A stretch of DNA of 64,000 bases from an uncultured Acidobacteriota bacterium (GTDB taxonomy: Bacteria > Acidobacteriota > Vicinamibacteria > Vicinamibacterales > UBA2999), in contig CAWJVW010000005.1 in assembly GCA_963846425.1 (NCBI GenBank), forward strand, positions 2,647,350-2,711,349. Direction: 5' to 3'. Shown here one piece after another: positions 3,276 to 52,033 of the stretch. Within the stretch, counting starts at the first letter, position 1, and each line of letters starts with the position of its first letter. The position numbers and the translations under genes are program-made. A model generated the notes under the pieces. It worked only from the letters and a program-made list of their open reading frames with translations. It searched no databases and was not told where the DNA came from.

Positions 3276-3335
3276 GGGGACAGGCCTTGTCATCGGGGGA
3301 CAGTCCCTGTCATCGGGGGACAGTCCCCCTATCCC
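3276..3335. repeat. 3 tandem 20-bp units with GGGGACAG(G/T)CC core
   Basis: Units are ggggacaggccttgtcatcg (3276-3295), ggggacagtccctgtcatcg (3296-3315) and ggggacagtccccctatccc (3316-3335). The array is intergenic, between the LigD-pol stop (3351) and the DUF1080-like start (3217). Confidence 0.9.
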
Positions 3336-3350: not shown

Positions 3351-4217
3351 TCAAAGGCGTCGCAGTTTTTGAAGCGGGCGAGTCAACGATCGGCCACGCC
3401 TCCGCATGTCGGACCACAGATCACCGACCGCCGCTACTCGAACGGCCATAGTCCGCAGCGTGAACGTGCCGGGACCAATCTCGCCGTGTTCGAGCTCTTC
3501 CCACGTGCAGGGCGCGGACACCGGCGCGCCGGGCTTCGCACGCACGGCATACGCTGCGGCGAACGTCGCACCGTAGCCGTTGCGGCCAGTGTCGACGTAG
3601 ATCCGCCCCCGGCGGTCGGCCTTGCTGAACTCCTGCGTGAGGTGGGCAGGATCGCGATTTACCAGCGTCGTGCCCACGCTGTTCGCGAATTGTGCGACGT
3701 CGCTAAATCCCGCCTTGCCGTCGAGCGGGACGACAATGTGAAACCCCTTGGAGCCTGATGTCTTGAGCCAGCTGGGGAGGCCCAGCTCATTGAGAAGCTC
3801 GCGCAGCGCGAGCGCGGCCCCGCGCAGCTCCTCGGGCCGATCGGTCGAGGGATCCAAATCAAAGACACAAATATCCGGGTAATAGAGATTTGGCACGCGT
3901 GAGGTCCACACGTGCGGGGTGATCGTGTTCTGATTGGCAACCCAGAGCAGGGATCGCTTGTCGCGGATGATCGGATGGTGCACCGTCCCATCCTTTTTGG
4001 GGACGTCGACCCGCTCGAGCCACGCCGGGAAACCCTTGGACACATCCTTCTGCCAGAATCCCTTCTCGCCGATGCCCGAGGGATAACGCTCCATCGTAAT
4101 CGGACGCCCCCGGATGTGCGGCAGCATGACAAGCGCGATCGTCTCGTAGTACGCAGCCAGCTCCCCCTTGGTAATCCCCTCGTCCGGAAACAGCACCTTG
4201 TCAGGATGAGTGATCAT
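3351..4217 (-). CDS. ligD: NHEJ DNA polymerase/primase, LigD polymerase domain (stand-alone)
   Basis: MITHPDKVLFPDEGITKGELAAYY..., catalytic VFDLDP, and SGSKGFHIVVPL are typical of the LigD Pol/AEP primase domain. The ORF track starts at TTG 4229. ATG 4217 gives the canonical N-terminus, so the start is uncertain by 12 nt. Confidence 0.88.
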   Translation of the reverse strand: MITHPDKVLFPDEGITKGELAAYYETIALVMLPHIRGRPITMERYPSGIGEKGFWQKDVSKGFPAWLERVDVPKKDGTVHHPIIRDKRSLLWVANQNTITPHVWTSRVPNLYYPDICVFDLDPSTDRPEELRGAALALRELLNELGLPSWLKTSGSKGFHIVVPLDGKAGFSDVAQFANSVGTTLVNRDPAHLTQEFSKADRRGRIYVDTGRNGYGATFAAAYAVRAKPGAPVSAPCTWEELEHGEIGPGTFTLRTMAVRVAAVGDLWSDMRRRGRSLTRPLQKLRRL

Positions 4218-4236
4218 CGGTGTCAGCAACTGCGGG

Positions 4237-4257
4237 AAAAGGGGACTGTCCCCTTTT
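4237..4257. promoter_or_regulatory. perfect 21-bp palindrome AAAAGGGGACTGTCCCCTTTT (candidate operator or hairpin)
   Basis: 10+1+10 perfect inverted repeat centred on T4247. It lies in the 36-bp gap between the ligase stop (4266) and the pol start (4217/4229). It is identical to 24682-24702. Confidence 0.6.
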
Positions 4258-4265
4258 TCCTGGAA

Positions 4266-5093
4266 TCACCGGATGGCCAGCAGCCGCGAGTGGCGAAGCT
4301 TGCGATGCACCGTCCATTCGATGAAGGCAACGTGCGCGACGATCTCAGGTCGCACCCAGTGGGCGCGAATACGCGGCAGGCCGACCGCTTTGGTGAAGGG
4401 CGGCTTCGGGATCTCGAGCGCATCCAGCCGCGCGCGCAGTTCCAGAAGAAGCTTGGTATCGAAGCCGGTGCCGACCCTGCCGGCGAAGACGAAGTCGCCG
4501 TGCTCGAAGAAGCCGACGAGAAGCGCCCCGAGTCCGACGCGTCCGCCCTGCGGATCCGTAAACCCCCCGACGACGAAGTCCTGCGACGCCTCGCATTTCA
4601 TTTTCAGCCAGTGTGGCGAACGGCGGTGCTCGTATCGCGAGTCGCGCCGCTTGGCAATCACGCCCTCCCAGCCTTCGGCGCTCGCCCGTTCCCACGGTTT
4701 CGGATCATCGAGCGCATCCACGTGCGCGAGGGGCGCCCGAAACGTCATCTGTCTCACGAGCGCTCGTCGCGCATCGAGCGGCAAGGACGTCACGTCGCGA
4801 CCGTTGATCCACATGAGGTCGAAAACATGATAGGTCACGCGGGACCGTCCAAACGTGACTTCGCCGTCGAGGATCACATCGTCAACTGGCAAGGCTGCAA
4901 CCGCTGCCGCGACGGACGGGAGGCTCTGTGGCAGGCGGTTGCGGGAGAGCAGTCGAACCTCCGACCCGTTCTTGAACGCGATCAACCGGATGCCGTCGAA
5001 CTTGCGCTCGAAGATCCAGTCGGGTCCGGTGAACCGTTCCTCGGTCAAGGTCGCCGCCATGGGTACGAGCCAGTCGGGGAAGGTTGATGTCAC
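4266..5093 (-). CDS. ligD: ATP-dependent DNA ligase (LigD ligase domain, stand-alone)
   Basis: 275 aa. Ligase motifs are I ERKFDGIR (KxDG), III LDGEV, IIIa YHVFDLMW, IV EGVIAKR and V WLKMK. No phosphoesterase domain is present. Confidence 0.88.
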   Translation of the reverse strand: MTSTFPDWLVPMAATLTEERFTGPDWIFERKFDGIRLIAFKNGSEVRLLSRNRLPQSLPSVAAAVAALPVDDVILDGEVTFGRSRVTYHVFDLMWINGRDVTSLPLDARRALVRQMTFRAPLAHVDALDDPKPWERASAEGWEGVIAKRRDSRYEHRRSPHWLKMKCEASQDFVVGGFTDPQGGRVGLGALLVGFFEHGDFVFAGRVGTGFDTKLLLELRARLDALEIPKPPFTKAVGLPRIRAHWVRPEIVAHVAFIEWTVHRKLRHSRLLAIR

Positions 5094-9934: not shown

Positions 9935-11299
9935 TCAGTGTCCTCGGCCATGATGCCGGAGCAACTCGTCCACTTCGGCGTACCCTGATGGCCATGCGAC
10001 CTCGTCTACCGAAGCCCCGGCGCGGAGCAGCGCGTCAACCGAGTCGGGCTTGCGACGGTCAGACCAGTACGAGTCTACGCACGCCTTGACAGCAAGTGCC
10101 AGAGGCGTGTGTCCCTTGCCGTCCCTGGCATCGAGTGGCGCGCCCCGTTCGATCAGCAGCGTCACCGTCTGGTGCCACGCGCGCCAGGCGGCGACGTGGA
10201 GCGCTGTGCTGCTTTTCGGGATACCGAAGTAGCCATCGCCTGCGTAGAGTGCATCCACCGGGACCCCGAGGTCGAGAAGCAACGCCACGCCTGCAGTGTT
10301 GCCGGTTCCCGCAAACTCCGCCAGCAACGTGCCTCCGGCCTCGAGCAGCTTGCGGACGAGTAATGGCTCACGCTCGGCGATGGATCGGACGGTTGCCGCA
10401 TCGTGGCGCGCGCAGGCGGCAATCAAGCGTTCGATACCGTGGAATTCGACGGCGATGCCGCGTCGTTCCATCTCGGCGAGCAGGTCACCGCGTCCTCGTC
10501 GCGCCGCCATCGCAGCGGCCGACCGGCCATCTTCACGCTGCATGGGATCGGCACCGTGGTCGAGGAGGAGCGCGATGATCTCGAGAGCATTGTCACGAGC
10601 GATGGCGTGATGAAGTGGTCGCCAGCCGCGCGGCCTCTTTTGATTGACGTCGATGCCCTGTGCGAGCAGATACTTGACGCCTTCGTAGTCGTGCCAGTCG
10701 TGCTTGCGGATCAGCATGAGTGCGAGGCTGTCCGCACTGAGCCTGCCGGTCTCGACGAGCAGCTTCATCGCCTCGTTGTTCTCGGTTTCGGGCGAGTGGT
10801 ACACGACTTCCTCGAGATCCGGCTCCGCGCCGCGTTCCAGTAGCAATCGGGTCATCTCCGCGTGGTGGGCAACGCCCGCGGCGCCATACAACGCGGGCTC
10901 CCATTCGGGCTTGGGTTGGTGGTCGTCCTCCCAGAAACCGGTGTTAGGGTTGGCGCCGGCATCAAGCAGGGCTGTCGCGGCGCGCACGAACGCGTCCGAT
11001 CGCGTGCCATCGCGCTGAAGGTAAGTCGAAAAGCACAAGTGGGTGAGCGGGTCCACGTTGCGTGGACCGCCCTTTGTGGTCGCGTTCGCCGGATTGACGG
11101 CGATGAACCGTTTCACCGTCACATCGTCGCCGAGCATCGCGGCGGTATGAATGCTCGAAGTCGCGACCTGCGGGTGTTGGGCGAGTATCGCGTTGGCCTT
11201 GTCCACCGAGCCGTGCCAGAAACAGGCCTCGATAAACGCGGCTGCGTGATCGTCTGCCTTCGGGTTCATTGCTGATTGAGTCACCAGAAGCACCGGCAT
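9935..11299 (-). CDS. ankyrin-repeat protein
   Basis: 454 aa with many ANK units, for example GWRPLHHAIARDNALEIIALLLDHGADP and TALHVAAWRAWHQTVTLLIERGAPLDARDGKGHTPLALA. An alternative start is at 11269. Confidence 0.8.
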   Translation of the reverse strand: MPVLLVTQSAMNPKADDHAAAFIEACFWHGSVDKANAILAQHPQVATSSIHTAAMLGDDVTVKRFIAVNPANATTKGGPRNVDPLTHLCFSTYLQRDGTRSDAFVRAATALLDAGANPNTGFWEDDHQPKPEWEPALYGAAGVAHHAEMTRLLLERGAEPDLEEVVYHSPETENNEAMKLLVETGRLSADSLALMLIRKHDWHDYEGVKYLLAQGIDVNQKRPRGWRPLHHAIARDNALEIIALLLDHGADPMQREDGRSAAAMAARRGRGDLLAEMERRGIAVEFHGIERLIAACARHDAATVRSIAEREPLLVRKLLEAGGTLLAEFAGTGNTAGVALLLDLGVPVDALYAGDGYFGIPKSSTALHVAAWRAWHQTVTLLIERGAPLDARDGKGHTPLALAVKACVDSYWSDRRKPDSVDALLRAGASVDEVAWPSGYAEVDELLRHHGRGH

Positions 11300-22913: not shown

Positions 22914-22963
22914 GATCACTAGATCACTAGATCACTAGATCACCAGATCCCAGATCACCAGAT
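22914..22963. repeat. tandem GATC-containing octamer array (about 6 units)
   Basis: gatcacta x3, gatcacca, gatccca, gatcacca, gat... The array starts 7 nt after the stop at 22907 and ends 15 nt before the SDR ATG (22978). Confidence 0.9.
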
Positions 22964-22977
22964 GCCCCCCGACCCCC

Positions 22978-23733
22978 ATGGATCTCAACGGTAAGACGGC
23001 CTTCGTGACCGGCGGCTCCGGCGACATCGGTGCCGCAATTGCCCAGGCGCTGGCCCGTGCCGGTGCACATGTCGCGATCTCGTACGTCGGACACAAGGAT
23101 GGGGCCATGGCCACGGCGGCCGCGATCGACGCAGCCGGGGTGCGAAGCCTGATGGTGCAACTCGATCAGCGGGATCCAGACTCGATCGACGCGTCGGTCG
23201 ATCAGGTAGTCAAGGGACTGGGACGAGTGGACATTCTCGTCAACAATGCCGGCTGGAACATCGGCATTCCATTCGCGGCGCTCGACGAGCTCACCGCTGA
23301 CATCTGGAACCGTGTCCACGAGACGAATCTACGAGGCCCGTACCTCCTTTCCAGGGCGTTCGCGCCGCATCTACGCGCGCACGGCGCCGGGCGGATTGTC
23401 AATATTGCCTCCGTTGGCGGGCTGCTGCCCGCAAGCAGCAGCGTCGCCTATTCGGCGAGCAAGGCCGGCCTGATTCACCTCACGCGTTGCCTGGCCGTTG
23501 CACTCGCTCCAACGGTCACGGTGAATTGCGTGGCGCCGGGATTGGTGGAAGGAACGCGCATGGCCGAGCGGCTGCCTCCAGCAGTGGCTGAAGGCGCTCG
23601 TCGTCAGGCCGTGCTTGGCCGAACGGCCAGCGTAGCGGACATCGCGGATCAGGTCCTGACATTCTGCCGTGCGGAGTCGGTCACTGGACAGGTGCTCGTC
23701 GTCGACGGCGGCATGCCTGGCGGCATGCATTAG
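22978..23733 (+). CDS. SDR-family oxidoreductase (FabG-like)
   Basis: TGGSGDIGAAIA (TGxxxGxG), NNAG and YSASKAG (YxxxK). Confidence 0.85.
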   Translation: MDLNGKTAFVTGGSGDIGAAIAQALARAGAHVAISYVGHKDGAMATAAAIDAAGVRSLMVQLDQRDPDSIDASVDQVVKGLGRVDILVNNAGWNIGIPFAALDELTADIWNRVHETNLRGPYLLSRAFAPHLRAHGAGRIVNIASVGGLLPASSSVAYSASKAGLIHLTRCLAVALAPTVTVNCVAPGLVEGTRMAERLPPAVAEGARRQAVLGRTASVADIADQVLTFCRAESVTGQVLVVDGGMPGGMH

Positions 23734-23752
23734 CAGATATGATTGCGCCATC

Positions 23753-23808
23753 TTGTGATCTGGTGATCTGGTGATCTTGCGATCTTGCGATCTTGTGATC
23801 TTGTGATT
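23753..23808. repeat. tandem GATC-containing octamer array (7 units), inverted relative to 22914-22963
   Basis: ttgtgatc, tggtgatc x2, ttgcgatc x2, ttgtgatc, ttgtgatt. The unit tggtgatc is the exact reverse complement of gatcacca in the upstream array. Confidence 0.9.
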
Positions 23809-23850
23809 GTCGGTGCTCCCCGATCATCAGAGCACCTCGTACAAACGTCA

Positions 23851-24660
23851 ATGAGCTTCACCGATCTCGCGCTGGCGCGGCGACTCGAAAGGGCCGAGGC
23901 CCAGAGCAACGTCGATTTCGTCGAGGCTCGCGCGCGCGCGTTGCCCGACAGCGGGGCGCAATGGATCGAGGTCGCTGGCGCGTATGCCATGTTCGACGGC
24001 ATCACGTCGCCGCTGACGCAGTCGTTTGGTCTCGGCCTCTTCGACAGGGTTACGGATGCCGAGCTGCAGCGTCTCGAGGCCTTCTTCCAGCAGCGCAGGG
24101 CCCCCGTCTGCCACGAAGTGAGCCCGCTCGCGGATCCGTCACTCCTGCCGTTGCTGAACGCACGCGGCTATCAGCCGATCGAGTTCACGAGCGTCACCTC
24201 ACGTTCATTGACTAGGTCGGCGAGCGTCGAAGGACCGCGCAACGAGCGTATCCGCGTGCGGACTGTCGATGAGAGCGAGTACGACTTGTGGGCCGAAACC
24301 GCCGCGCGCGGATGGATAGAATCTCCCGAGCTGGCTGATTTCATGCTGACCTTGTCGCAAATCAGTGCGCAACGGCAAAACACCGTGTCCTTTCTGGCGG
24401 AACTGAGTGGCCGACCCGTCGCGACTGGCGCGATGAGTCTGTGCGGAGGCGTGGCGCTGCTCGCGGGCGCCAGCACGATCCCAGAGGCGCGAAAGCAGGG
24501 AGCGCAGCTCGCGCTGCTCGACAGCCGCCTGCACTACGCCGCCGAGCATGGCTGCGACATCGCGATGATGTGTGCGCTGCCCGGCAGCGCGTCGCAGCGC
24601 AATGCCGAACGCCAGGGGTTTCGGATCGCATATACGCGCATCAAGTGGAAAAAACTGTGA
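23851..24660 (+). CDS. GNAT-family N-acetyltransferase
   Basis: Start moved to ATG 23851 (MSFTDLALARRLERAEA...). The acetyl-CoA motif region is TIPEARKQGAQLALLDSRLHYAAEHGCD. Confidence 0.65.
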   Translation: MSFTDLALARRLERAEAQSNVDFVEARARALPDSGAQWIEVAGAYAMFDGITSPLTQSFGLGLFDRVTDAELQRLEAFFQQRRAPVCHEVSPLADPSLLPLLNARGYQPIEFTSVTSRSLTRSASVEGPRNERIRVRTVDESEYDLWAETAARGWIESPELADFMLTLSQISAQRQNTVSFLAELSGRPVATGAMSLCGGVALLAGASTIPEARKQGAQLALLDSRLHYAAEHGCDIAMMCALPGSASQRNAERQGFRIAYTRIKWKKL

Positions 24661-24681
24661 GACGCCACTGTCAACGCGCAG

Positions 24682-24702
24682 AAAAGGGGACTGTCCCCTT
24701 TT
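24682..24702. promoter_or_regulatory. perfect 21-bp palindrome AAAAGGGGACTGTCCCCTTTT (candidate operator)
   Basis: Identical to 4237-4257. It lies 22 nt after the GNAT stop, abuts a TATAAT hexamer, and is 25 nt upstream of the thyA ATG. Confidence 0.6.
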
Positions 24703-24727: not shown

Positions 24728-25513
24728 ATGAGGGCTTATCTCGACCTCGTTCAGCACGTCCTTGACACCGGGGAGACGCGGGAGGATCGAACAGGCACAG
24801 GCACAATTTCGGTGTTCGGCGCCCAAACCCGCTACGACCTTCGCGAGGGATTTCCACTCCTCACTACAAAAAAAGTTCTGTTTGAGGCTGTTGTCCGTGA
24901 GCTGCTCTGGTTTTTGGGCGGGTGCACGAACACTCATCAACAGAAGCTGCGCGATCACACGCCCATCTGGGACGCCTGGGCTGATGCCGACGGCAATCTG
25001 GGACCCATCTATGGCTATCAATGGCGTAACTGGAACGGCCAGGGCATCGATCAGGTGCAACACGCGATCGATCTGATCAAGAAGAACCCCGCGTCGCGAC
25101 GCATCATTGTCAGCGCGTGGAATCCGGGGCAGCTTGCGGAGATGCGGCTGCCGCCGTGTCACATCCTGTTTCAGTTTTACGTCAGCCGGTCGGGCCGGCT
25201 CGATTGCCAGCTCTATCAGCGGTCCGCCGATCTCGGCCTGGGAGTTCCGTTCAATATCGCGAGCTACGCACTGTTGCTGACGATGATTGCGCAGGAATGC
25301 GACCTGACGCCGGGTGTGTTCGTGCACACGTTGGGGGATGCACACATCTATCTCAATCATCTAGAGGGACTGAAAGAGCAGTTGAGGCGCGACCCGCTCC
25401 CGCTTCCGCGAGTGACCGTCGCCCGCAGGCCATTGGGCGACATCGGGATCGGTGATATCGAGCTGCACGGGTATCAGCACCATCCGTTCATCCGTCTGCC
25501 AGTCGCTGTTTGA
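24728..25513 (+). CDS. thyA: thymidylate synthase ThyA
   Basis: [31 protein letters not shown]..., active site [12 protein letters not shown], and C-terminal ...PVAV. Confidence 0.95.
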
Positions 25514-26079
25514 TGCCTCACTTCGACATTGTCGTCGCGGCCGACGAGGCCGGAGGCATCGGCAAGCAAGGGCAGCTGCCATGGCATCTAAAAAGGGACA
25601 TGGCGCATTTCAAGCGACTGACGCAGGAACCGCCGACCGCCGACACCGTGAACGCGGTGATCATGGGACGCGTCACGTGGCAGTCCATTCCCGAGAAGTT
25701 TCGTCCGTTGCCGAGGCGGATCAACGTAGTCATCTCGGGCAATGCCGCGGTGCCGCTGCCAGACGACGTGATTCGCGCGAAGAGCCTGGACGAAGCACTC
25801 GCCACGCTGGATAGGATGGCTGACGTCGGTCGCGTGTTCGTGATTGGCGGCGGACAGATCTATAGCCAGGCGATCGTGCATCGGGATCTCGACACGATCT
25901 ATCTGACCCGCGTCCATGCCACGTTCAATTGCGACACTCGTTTTCCGGCGATCCCTCGCGCATTCGCGCTCGTTTCCGAGTCGCCGCCGCAGACCGAAGG
26001 ACCGTTGATGTACAGATTCTGCGAATATCGCCGCGCTCCCGCCGCGTCAACCATTCGTCACCGGGGACAGTCCCTGTAA
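25513..26079 (+). CDS. folA: dihydrofolate reductase
   Basis: [24 protein letters not shown]..., VIMGRVTWQSIP and VFVIGGGQIY. The ATG at 25513 overlaps the thyA TGA (TGATG). The last 17 nt lie inside the 20-bp repeat array. Confidence 0.9.
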   Translation: MPHFDIVVAADEAGGIGKQGQLPWHLKRDMAHFKRLTQEPPTADTVNAVIMGRVTWQSIPEKFRPLPRRINVVISGNAAVPLPDDVIRAKSLDEALATLDRMADVGRVFVIGGGQIYSQAIVHRDLDTIYLTRVHATFNCDTRFPAIPRAFALVSESPPQTEGPLMYRFCEYRRAPAASTIRHRGQSL

Positions 26080-26122
26080 CGGGGGGACAGTCCCTGTCAC
26101 CGGGGGACAGTCCCCGTAACGG
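26063..26122. repeat. 3 tandem 20-bp units with GGGGACAGTCCC core
   Basis: Units are ggggacagtccctgtaacgg (26063-26082), ggggacagtccctgtcaccg (26083-26102) and ggggacagtccccgtaacgg (26103-26122). Same family as 3276-3335. Confidence 0.9.
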
Positions 26123-30000: not shown

Positions 30001-30105
30001 AAAAGGCAAAAGGCAACAGGCAAAAGGCAAAAGGCAAAAGGCACAAGGCAAAAGGCACAAGGCAAAAGGCACAAGGCACAAGGCACAAGGCACAAGACAC
30101 AAGTC
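30001..30105. repeat. 15-unit heptamer array (A[A/C]AAGGC)n
   Basis: The array starts 2 nt after the TAG stop of the M1 gene. Units read aaaaggc x2, aacaggc, aaaaggc x3, acaaggc, aaaaggc, acaaggc, aaaaggc, acaaggc x3, acaagac, acaagtc. I counted it base by base. Confidence 0.95.
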
Positions 30106-30155
30106 AATAGTGAGAAGGCAGAGGAACGACACGCGGTTTGGAGAGGAGGCCGGTC

Positions 30156-51992: not shown

Positions 51993-52033
51993 GGTCACGG
52001 TCCACGGTCCACGGTCGACGGTCCACGGTCCAC
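51993..52033. repeat. heptamer array (GGTCCAC)n, 6 units
   Basis: Units are ggtcac ggtccac ggtccac ggtcgac ggtccac ggtccac. The array fills the gap between the ThuA stop (52037) and the start of the hypothetical gene (51987). Confidence 0.9.

Follow-up and report, generated by a model that had tools for sequence, protein, structure and literature searches.

The 64-kb window analyzed here is a single stretch of DNA from a 3.33-Mb metagenomic contig (ENA ERZ25039588, contig_5182), of which about 71 kb around the window were read. The named homologues of the LigD polymerase encoded in the window come from Vicinamibacterales (Acidobacteriota). Copies of a short palindrome are located next to genes for a LigD polymerase and a LigD ligase module, and next to the thyA-folA gene pair. 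The genes and repeat copies are, in order of position:

3276..3328: array 1, three 20-bp units with cores at 3276 (degenerate), 3296 and 3316
3351..4217, minus strand: LigD primase-polymerase, 288 aa (Pfam LigD_Prim-Pol, E = 6e-85; exact match to P0001)
4237..4257: single copy 1, A4-GGGGACTGTCCCC-T4, core at 4241-4253, in the 48-nt gap from the ligase stop to the polymerase ATG
4266..5060, minus strand: ATP-dependent DNA ligase, the LigD ligase module, 264 aa (Pfam DNA_ligase_A_M and A_C; L122 gene call)
4266-4268, minus strand: stop codon of the ligase
23785..24660, plus strand: GNAT acetyltransferase, start codon uncertain (Pfam; gene calls in relatives)
24682..24702: single copy 2, the identical plus-strand 21-mer with its core at 24686-24698, between the GNAT stop and the thyA ATG
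24728-25513, plus strand: thyA (Pfam Thymidylat_synt, E = 5e-111)
25510-26079, plus strand: folA (Pfam DHFR_1, E = 2e-38)
26063..26115: array 2, three 20-bp units with cores at 26063, 26083 and 26103
from 26222: SPFH gene, the next gene after array 2 (Pfam)

The 21-mer AAAAGGGGACTGTCCCCTTTT has two exact plus-strand occurrences, at 4237-4257 and 24682-24702, as the first-pass annotation of this DNA had stated. In 100 shuffles the expected number of matches was 0, with up to 3 mismatches tolerated. When the core GGGGACWGTCCC was searched with at most one mismatch, 14 strand-matches were obtained compared with 0.54 expected, and all were confined to four loci. In total, the window contains eight cores over these four intergenic loci. 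Both arrays of 20-bp units noted earlier at 3276 and 26063 were also recovered by Tandem Repeats Finder (3276-3327, period 20, 2.6 copies; 26063-26122, period 20, 3.0 copies), the first unit at 3276 being the degenerate GGGGACAGGCC. On one strand, the core starts with GGGGACAG in every window copy. The conserved core GGGGACWGTCCCC is made up of two GGGGWSAS-type termini placed head to head with a 3-nt overlap, which yields a 13-mer. It is flanked by A/T runs at the single copies and by CG/TG in the arrays; neither GTAG nor CGTC is found in these flanks. A search of the window against Rfam returned no family at the gathering thresholds and only chance-level matches around the four sites. In the literature, the literal core string was encountered only in eukaryotic primers and sites.

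All four loci are short gaps between co-directional genes, and the repeats lie shortly 3' of a stop codon. Since the polymerase starts at ATG 4217 in the public gene call, the gap between ligase and polymerase measures 48 nt (4218-4265), which corrects the 36 bp given previously. Copy 1 starts 8 nt past the ligase TGA. Copy 2 is located 21 nt past the GNAT stop and 25 nt 5' of the thyA ATG, and for each of the single copies a post-stop position is as good a description as a pre-start position. Array 1 has the polymerase stop (3351) on one side and the start (3217) of the next minus-strand gene on the other. Array 2 extends into folA, whose final codons and TAA stop it overlaps, so that in this region (26040-26079) the repeat now encodes a protein tail; the folA product has 189 aa, 14 aa more than in the relatives L209 and L213.

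The palindrome had been proposed to be a shared operator linking NHEJ repair and thymidylate synthesis, through which a dimeric, palindrome-binding transcription factor would co-regulate the LigD polymerase and thyA-folA. The dyad is indeed perfect through to its centre and the two copies are identical; in addition, a TATAAT is found directly 3' of the thyA copy, 19 nt before the ATG. However, scans for promoters gave no promoter-like site near the ligD copy or around the thyA copy, and the same core is also present in the arrays after pol and after folA, where it follows genes. Furthermore, minus-strand genes surround the copy at 4237 and plus-strand genes the copy at 24682, so that the identical 21-mers are oppositely oriented with respect to transcription.

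Other repeats were noticed in the same region. On the plus strand, three of the four loci in the window (24667-24672, 26047-26053, 4223-4231) have a GTCAAC-like word 12-14 nt 5' of the core, as does the folA-downstream copy of the relative L209. The word could belong to a longer element, reflect a target preference or be there by chance. A short-chain dehydrogenase gene (22978-23733) has inverted octamer arrays on both sides (22914-22963 and 23750-23807). The upstream array is (GATCACYA) x ~6, and the downstream array, (ATCTKGYG) x ~7, includes the reverse complement TGGTGATC of the upstream octamer. Both arrays are missing in L213, and L209 keeps no more than a short GATCACRA run on the upstream side. 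Two intergenic heptamer arrays were also seen, (AAAAGGC/ACAAGGC) x 15 at 30001-30107 directly 3' of the stop of an M1 peptidase gene, and (CACGGTC) x 5 at 51996-52033.

As single-stranded DNA, the 21-mer is predicted to form a hairpin of -7.6 kcal/mol, and RNA folds that include the flanks are predicted at -17 to -20 kcal/mol. The array units are each self-complementary, and adjacent ones are therefore predicted to pair with each other in a 12-bp REPIN-like stem. The RNA folds, and the stop codon that precedes every copy in the window, would fit an element that serves primarily as an intrinsic (bidirectional) terminator or as an mRNA-stabilising 3' hairpin. An A-run, a GC stem and a T-run shortly 3' of stop codons are features shared with Rho-independent bidirectional terminators, and E. 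coli REPs affect termination and mRNA decay (cited in PMC5581495). Yet the loop is very small, the T-run has only 4 nt and is predicted to be paired with the A-run, and the arrays are devoid of T-runs. In line with the earlier judgement that the palindrome makes a poor intrinsic terminator, neither single copy was called in terminator consensus scans (GC stem-loop followed by at least 5 T in 8 nt).

The orthologous loci of relatives were then compared. In L123 and L124, whose polymerase is 95% identical, the ligase-pol junction has the element in the same place in mutated form: one C is lost in L124, and L123 carries two substitutions and reads GAAAGGGGGCCGTCCCCTTTT. In L126, L127 and L128 (polymerase 81-82% identical), the junction has neither the palindrome nor a gap. 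Here, the ligase TGA overlaps the GTG start of the polymerase (GTGA), and the ligase is 11 codons longer (...RTDKSAREVVRE) than the window ligase. Absence at 81-82% and damage at 95% identity mean that the element is an insertion in the window lineage. It took the place of the GTGA overlap, cost the ligase its last 11 codons and opened the 48-nt gap, and it thereby separated a gene pair that is translationally coupled in relatives, a location that argues against a terminator function. In the window lineage, the polymerase starts at a new ATG that follows the palindrome by 19 nt and has no obvious Shine-Dalgarno sequence.

Four contigs (L209-L212; ThyA 90% identical) carry AAAAGGGCTCTGTCCCCTTTTT upstream of thyA, in which the dyad symmetry is lost, and in eight others (L213-L220; ThyA 87% identical) the spacer is unrelated and lacks the element. 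The arrays vary as well: the one after pol has 3 units in the source genome and 5 in L123, and the one after folA has 3 units in the source, 1 in L209-L212 and 0 in L213-L220. The ligD and thyA copies are old enough to be common to relatives at 90-95% identity. Conservation of the site at orthologous ligD and thyA regions had been suggested as a test of the shared operator, and when this test was run the site proved to be absent or decayed in relatives. The window copies are thus lineage-specific insertions that decay like neutral DNA, and in being gained, decaying and changing in copy number they behave like a dispersed repeat and unlike a conserved operator. With the site missing at 81-87% identity and mutated or asymmetric at 90-95%, and with the core located beside transposase genes and unrelated genes in many phyla (see below), we regard co-regulation through the 21-mer as highly improbable.

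Downstream of the polymerase gene of L128, which is another organism of the same sample, a GTAG-tagged REP-like pair (gtaGGGGACGGTCTTCAGACCGTCCC, twice) was observed at about 10995-11085. It has a GGGGAC...GTCCC foot, as in the window core, around a longer stem.

The sequence AGGGGACWGTCCCT was searched in 185,579 species genomes (596 Gb), which gave at least 120 stretches, and 186 copies were examined. By our arithmetic, about 1,000-2,000 chance matches to this 15-mer are expected in 596 Gb. Since this number is large, and many matches have terminator-like A-run/T-run flanks, single matches in other phyla prove little. Among the matches listed, the core occurs in many phyla and beside unrelated genes, and three features nevertheless set these matches apart from random ones: recurring genomes, clustering, and a variable extension of the palindrome (see below). 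The genomes that recur include MAGs of Polyangiales, Solirubrobacteraceae and Coriobacteriaceae. Many of the listed loci contain two to four cores or tandem arrays, the repeat period being about 20-21, 39 or 56 bp. Examples of the longer periods, from unrelated taxa, are Metabacillus bambusae (L058, 4000-4150), with the core inside a 56-bp tandem unit, and an Actinomycetota MAG (L074, 7900-8000), with a 39-bp unit. The core is also found in other Vicinamibacterales and Acidobacteriota genomes (L047, L049, L088, L114). This recurrence bears on the possibility that the window copies are a local accident, i.e. the result of segmental duplication, gene conversion or slippage within the 64-kb region and not members of a genome-wide family. 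The inspected source sequence amounts to 64-71 kb and the array sizes change in slippage-like steps, both of which would be compatible with such an origin. However, distances of up to 23 kb separate the four sites, whose flanks are unrelated, and together with the copies in related genomes and in many phyla this leaves a purely local origin very little probability.

The copies in other genomes were also inspected for features beyond the core. Among the 186 copies listed, 50 are the full A4...T4 21-mer, and in 78 the palindrome is at least 4 bp longer than the 13-mer, the extension differing between copies. At the positions left free by the search pattern, the 5' flank is A in 70, 59 and 51% and the 3' flank is T in 74, 70 and 56% of these copies. 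In the 186 oriented copies, no conserved asymmetric flank of the type of a guide or cleavage motif was found past the A/T runs (+/-4). Motif sites fall inside stop-free stretches of at least 200 codons in 56% of cases, compared with 90% for random sites, although this is a crude test in GC-rich DNA.

Some of the listed copies are accompanied by a further conserved arm (GGGTTAA / TTAACCC), always at +11 or -16 relative to the core. It is present in 11 of the 186 copies, with about 1.4% expected, and the genomes concerned (L010, L031, L041, L065, L067, L094, L099, L106, L111) are mostly Myxococcota, which points to a longer, composite form of the element there. In L209, a similar ...TTTTTATKGTTAAC is located 3' of both copies.

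In five of the 120 motif-selected loci listed, fewer than 100 bp separate the core from a Y1_Tnp / REP_Tyr_transpos gene. These loci are from Nitrospira (L012), Planctomycetota (L005, L077, L118) and Patescibacteria (L050); the core is found on both sides of the gene in L012, L005, L077 and L118 and on one side in L050. The encoded proteins (176-241 aa) are IS200-like HUH/Y1 transposases of the RAYT type. All five match Pfam Y1_Tnp (E = 1e-11 to 5e-16), and scores of 81.7 and 70.6 bits were obtained with the NCBIfam model REP_Tyr_transpos (REP-associated tyrosine transposase), the cutoff of which is 80. Although their pairwise identity is only 26-54%, the residues N64, H65, H67, Y125, N129, R132 and A133 (HUH and Y---NP) are invariant in their alignment (A1). 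Past the 121-position core of the alignment, all five have a C-terminal extension. The five proteins gave no match to the Pfam HTH or Bac_DnaA_C domains even at E <= 5, and the assignment of the transposases to subclass 2.1 is putative. A further pair of cores, about 755 bp apart in L025, turned out not to surround a transposase gene; it encloses a glutamine-amidotransferase-like gene (hisH-like, by eye), and spacing alone is therefore not diagnostic.

In the reverse approach, a transposase-centred scan of metagenomes, 80 homologue loci were collected. The exact core flanks two of them (L137, L145), which brings the number of loci with an exact core next to a transposase gene to seven (five motif-selected and two transposase-selected). 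Another five of the 80 (L131, L133, L134, L154, L165) have longer flanking hairpins with the foot GGGAC...GTCCC, and under this search the remaining homologue loci showed neither the core nor a hairpin with this foot. As the exact core was found at only two of 80 loci, we do not claim that the whole transposase clade recognizes the 13-mer and retain only the weaker pattern, the GGGAC...GTCCC foot. Core and transposase are genuinely associated, although the clade as a whole does not share the exact 13-mer. For the source genome, tblastn and the L122 gene list gave no Y1 transposase gene in the approximately 71 kb read, and the link to a transposase is thus made there by analogy only.

With these data, the terminator explanation can be weighed in its complete form, in which the sequence would recur because its shape of A-run, GC stem and T-run performs well, and its recurrence across phyla would be due to convergence and ascertainment. 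The A-rich 5' and T-rich 3' flanks and the 50 full 21-mers among the 186 listed copies speak in its favour. Convergence, however, leaves the invariant 13-mer apex, the tandem clustering and the flanking of Y1 genes on both sides unexplained, and Rho-independent terminators are conserved in shape and not, like this element, in sequence; nor do they share its tandem arrays and its association with transposase genes. We therefore consider termination or mRNA stabilization unlikely to be the primary function, while it is compatible with a secondary effect of a REP-like element.

Two kinds of known repeats were used for comparison. Classical REP, BIME and REPIN sequences with their RAYTs (Enterobacteria, Pseudomonas, Stenotrophomonas) are likewise short, GC-rich, extragenic palindromes in multiple copies. 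They are also located 3' of stop codons, within and between operons, they form regularly spaced clusters, their presence differs among close relatives, and repeats flank a single-copy gene for the cognate Y1 transposase (REPtron). Unlike them, the window element lacks the unpaired GT[AG]G (or CGTC) tag of the hairpin foot, its palindrome is perfect to a single central base, and its core is not species-specific. BIMEs alternate in orientation, whereas the arrays in the window are direct 20-bp tandems.

A closer match is provided by the repeats ('TIRtrons') of TIRYTs, which are tyrosine transposases of the IS200-like HUH/Y1 kind. TIRYT genes are flanked by inverted repeats in place of GTAG-tagged REPs; many of these repeats have the motif GGGGWSAS, some are self-complementary, and some make up moderately abundant dispersed families in which dimers or clusters occur (Di Nocera et al. 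2013, PMC3733652). A sharply defined group of TIRYTs was described for Acidobacteria (PMC3733652). Most TIRYTs belong to TnpA_Y1 subclass 2.1, which corresponds to the group 1 RAYTs of Bertels and has the consensus GGGG[AT][CG]A[CG]; REP-like sequences were not found around the genes of this subclass (Quentin et al. 2018, PMC6006769). Group 1 is the most widely distributed group of RAYTs and shows signs of horizontal transfer (Bertels et al. 2017, PMC5581495). In agreement with these descriptions, the terminus GGGGACAG of the window element is an exact fit to GGGGWSAS, the element is self-complementary, and its copies are single, paired or clustered in intergenic DNA. In other genomes, from several phyla, HUH/Y1 transposase genes also have the core on either side, and the transposase group is the one with the widest taxonomic spread and a distinct subgroup in Acidobacteria. 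There are differences, too: the window element consists of two abutting termini only (13 nt, or 21 with the A/T runs), the identical 21-mer recurs over many phyla, and the flanking transposases identified here have no detectable C-terminal HTH or DnaA_C domain.

Taken together, the 21-mer and the 20-bp arrays most probably belong to one family of small, selfish-type, dispersed extragenic palindromes (REP-like, TIRYT-type) that inserted in the lineage of this soil bacterium, and do not constitute a regulatory switch. This agrees with the alternative already offered by the first-pass annotation, a dispersed REP-like hairpin, and refines it to a GGGGWSAS/TIRYT-type repeat. By analogy to IS200/IS605 TnpA and E. 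coli TnpA-REP, the element would form a hairpin where its DNA is single-stranded at the replication fork. Action on a single-stranded hairpin has been shown for E. coli TnpA-REP in vitro; for TIRYTs, we know of no biochemical demonstration that any of them moves such repeats. A Y1 transposase encoded elsewhere in the genome might then, again by analogy, cut and rejoin the hairpin and in this way seed intergenic copies, and slippage would subsequently expand or contract those in tandem. We infer that effects on expression (a hairpin at the mRNA 3' end, weak attenuation, the loss of translational coupling) are a by-product of insertion and not the signal of a regulon, and a secondary role as 3' hairpin or weak attenuator may exist.

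More tentatively, and with doubts outweighing our confidence, the 13-mer, which often occurs as the complete A4-core-T4 21-mer, might represent a mobile element of 'zero length' in which two TIRYT termini are fused head to head, unchanged across Acidobacteriota, Planctomycetota, Nitrospirota, Myxococcota, Actinomycetota (Coriobacteriia), Omnitrophota, Patescibacteria and other phyla. If this were true, the 'zero-length' element would be the missing equivalent of REPs and REPINs for the group 1 / subclass 2.1 RAYTs, and the DNA specificity would have been conserved or repeatedly transferred across phyla despite the divergence of the transposases to about 27-33% identity. The recurrence of a 13- to 21-mer over many phyla and beside divergent transposases is mildly novel.

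For the organism itself, the result removes the apparent regulon of NHEJ and thymidylate synthesis from this window. Instead, a repeat of 21 bp reshaped two operons: the overlap of ligase and polymerase was split, the tail of the ligase was clipped, and the end of folA was supplied by the repeat. An uncultured lineage of Vicinamibacterales is thereby added to the hosts of GGGGWSAS-type repeats. For the transposases, our data suggest that the largest and least understood group of RAYTs may have very short cognate palindromes that are conserved across phyla.
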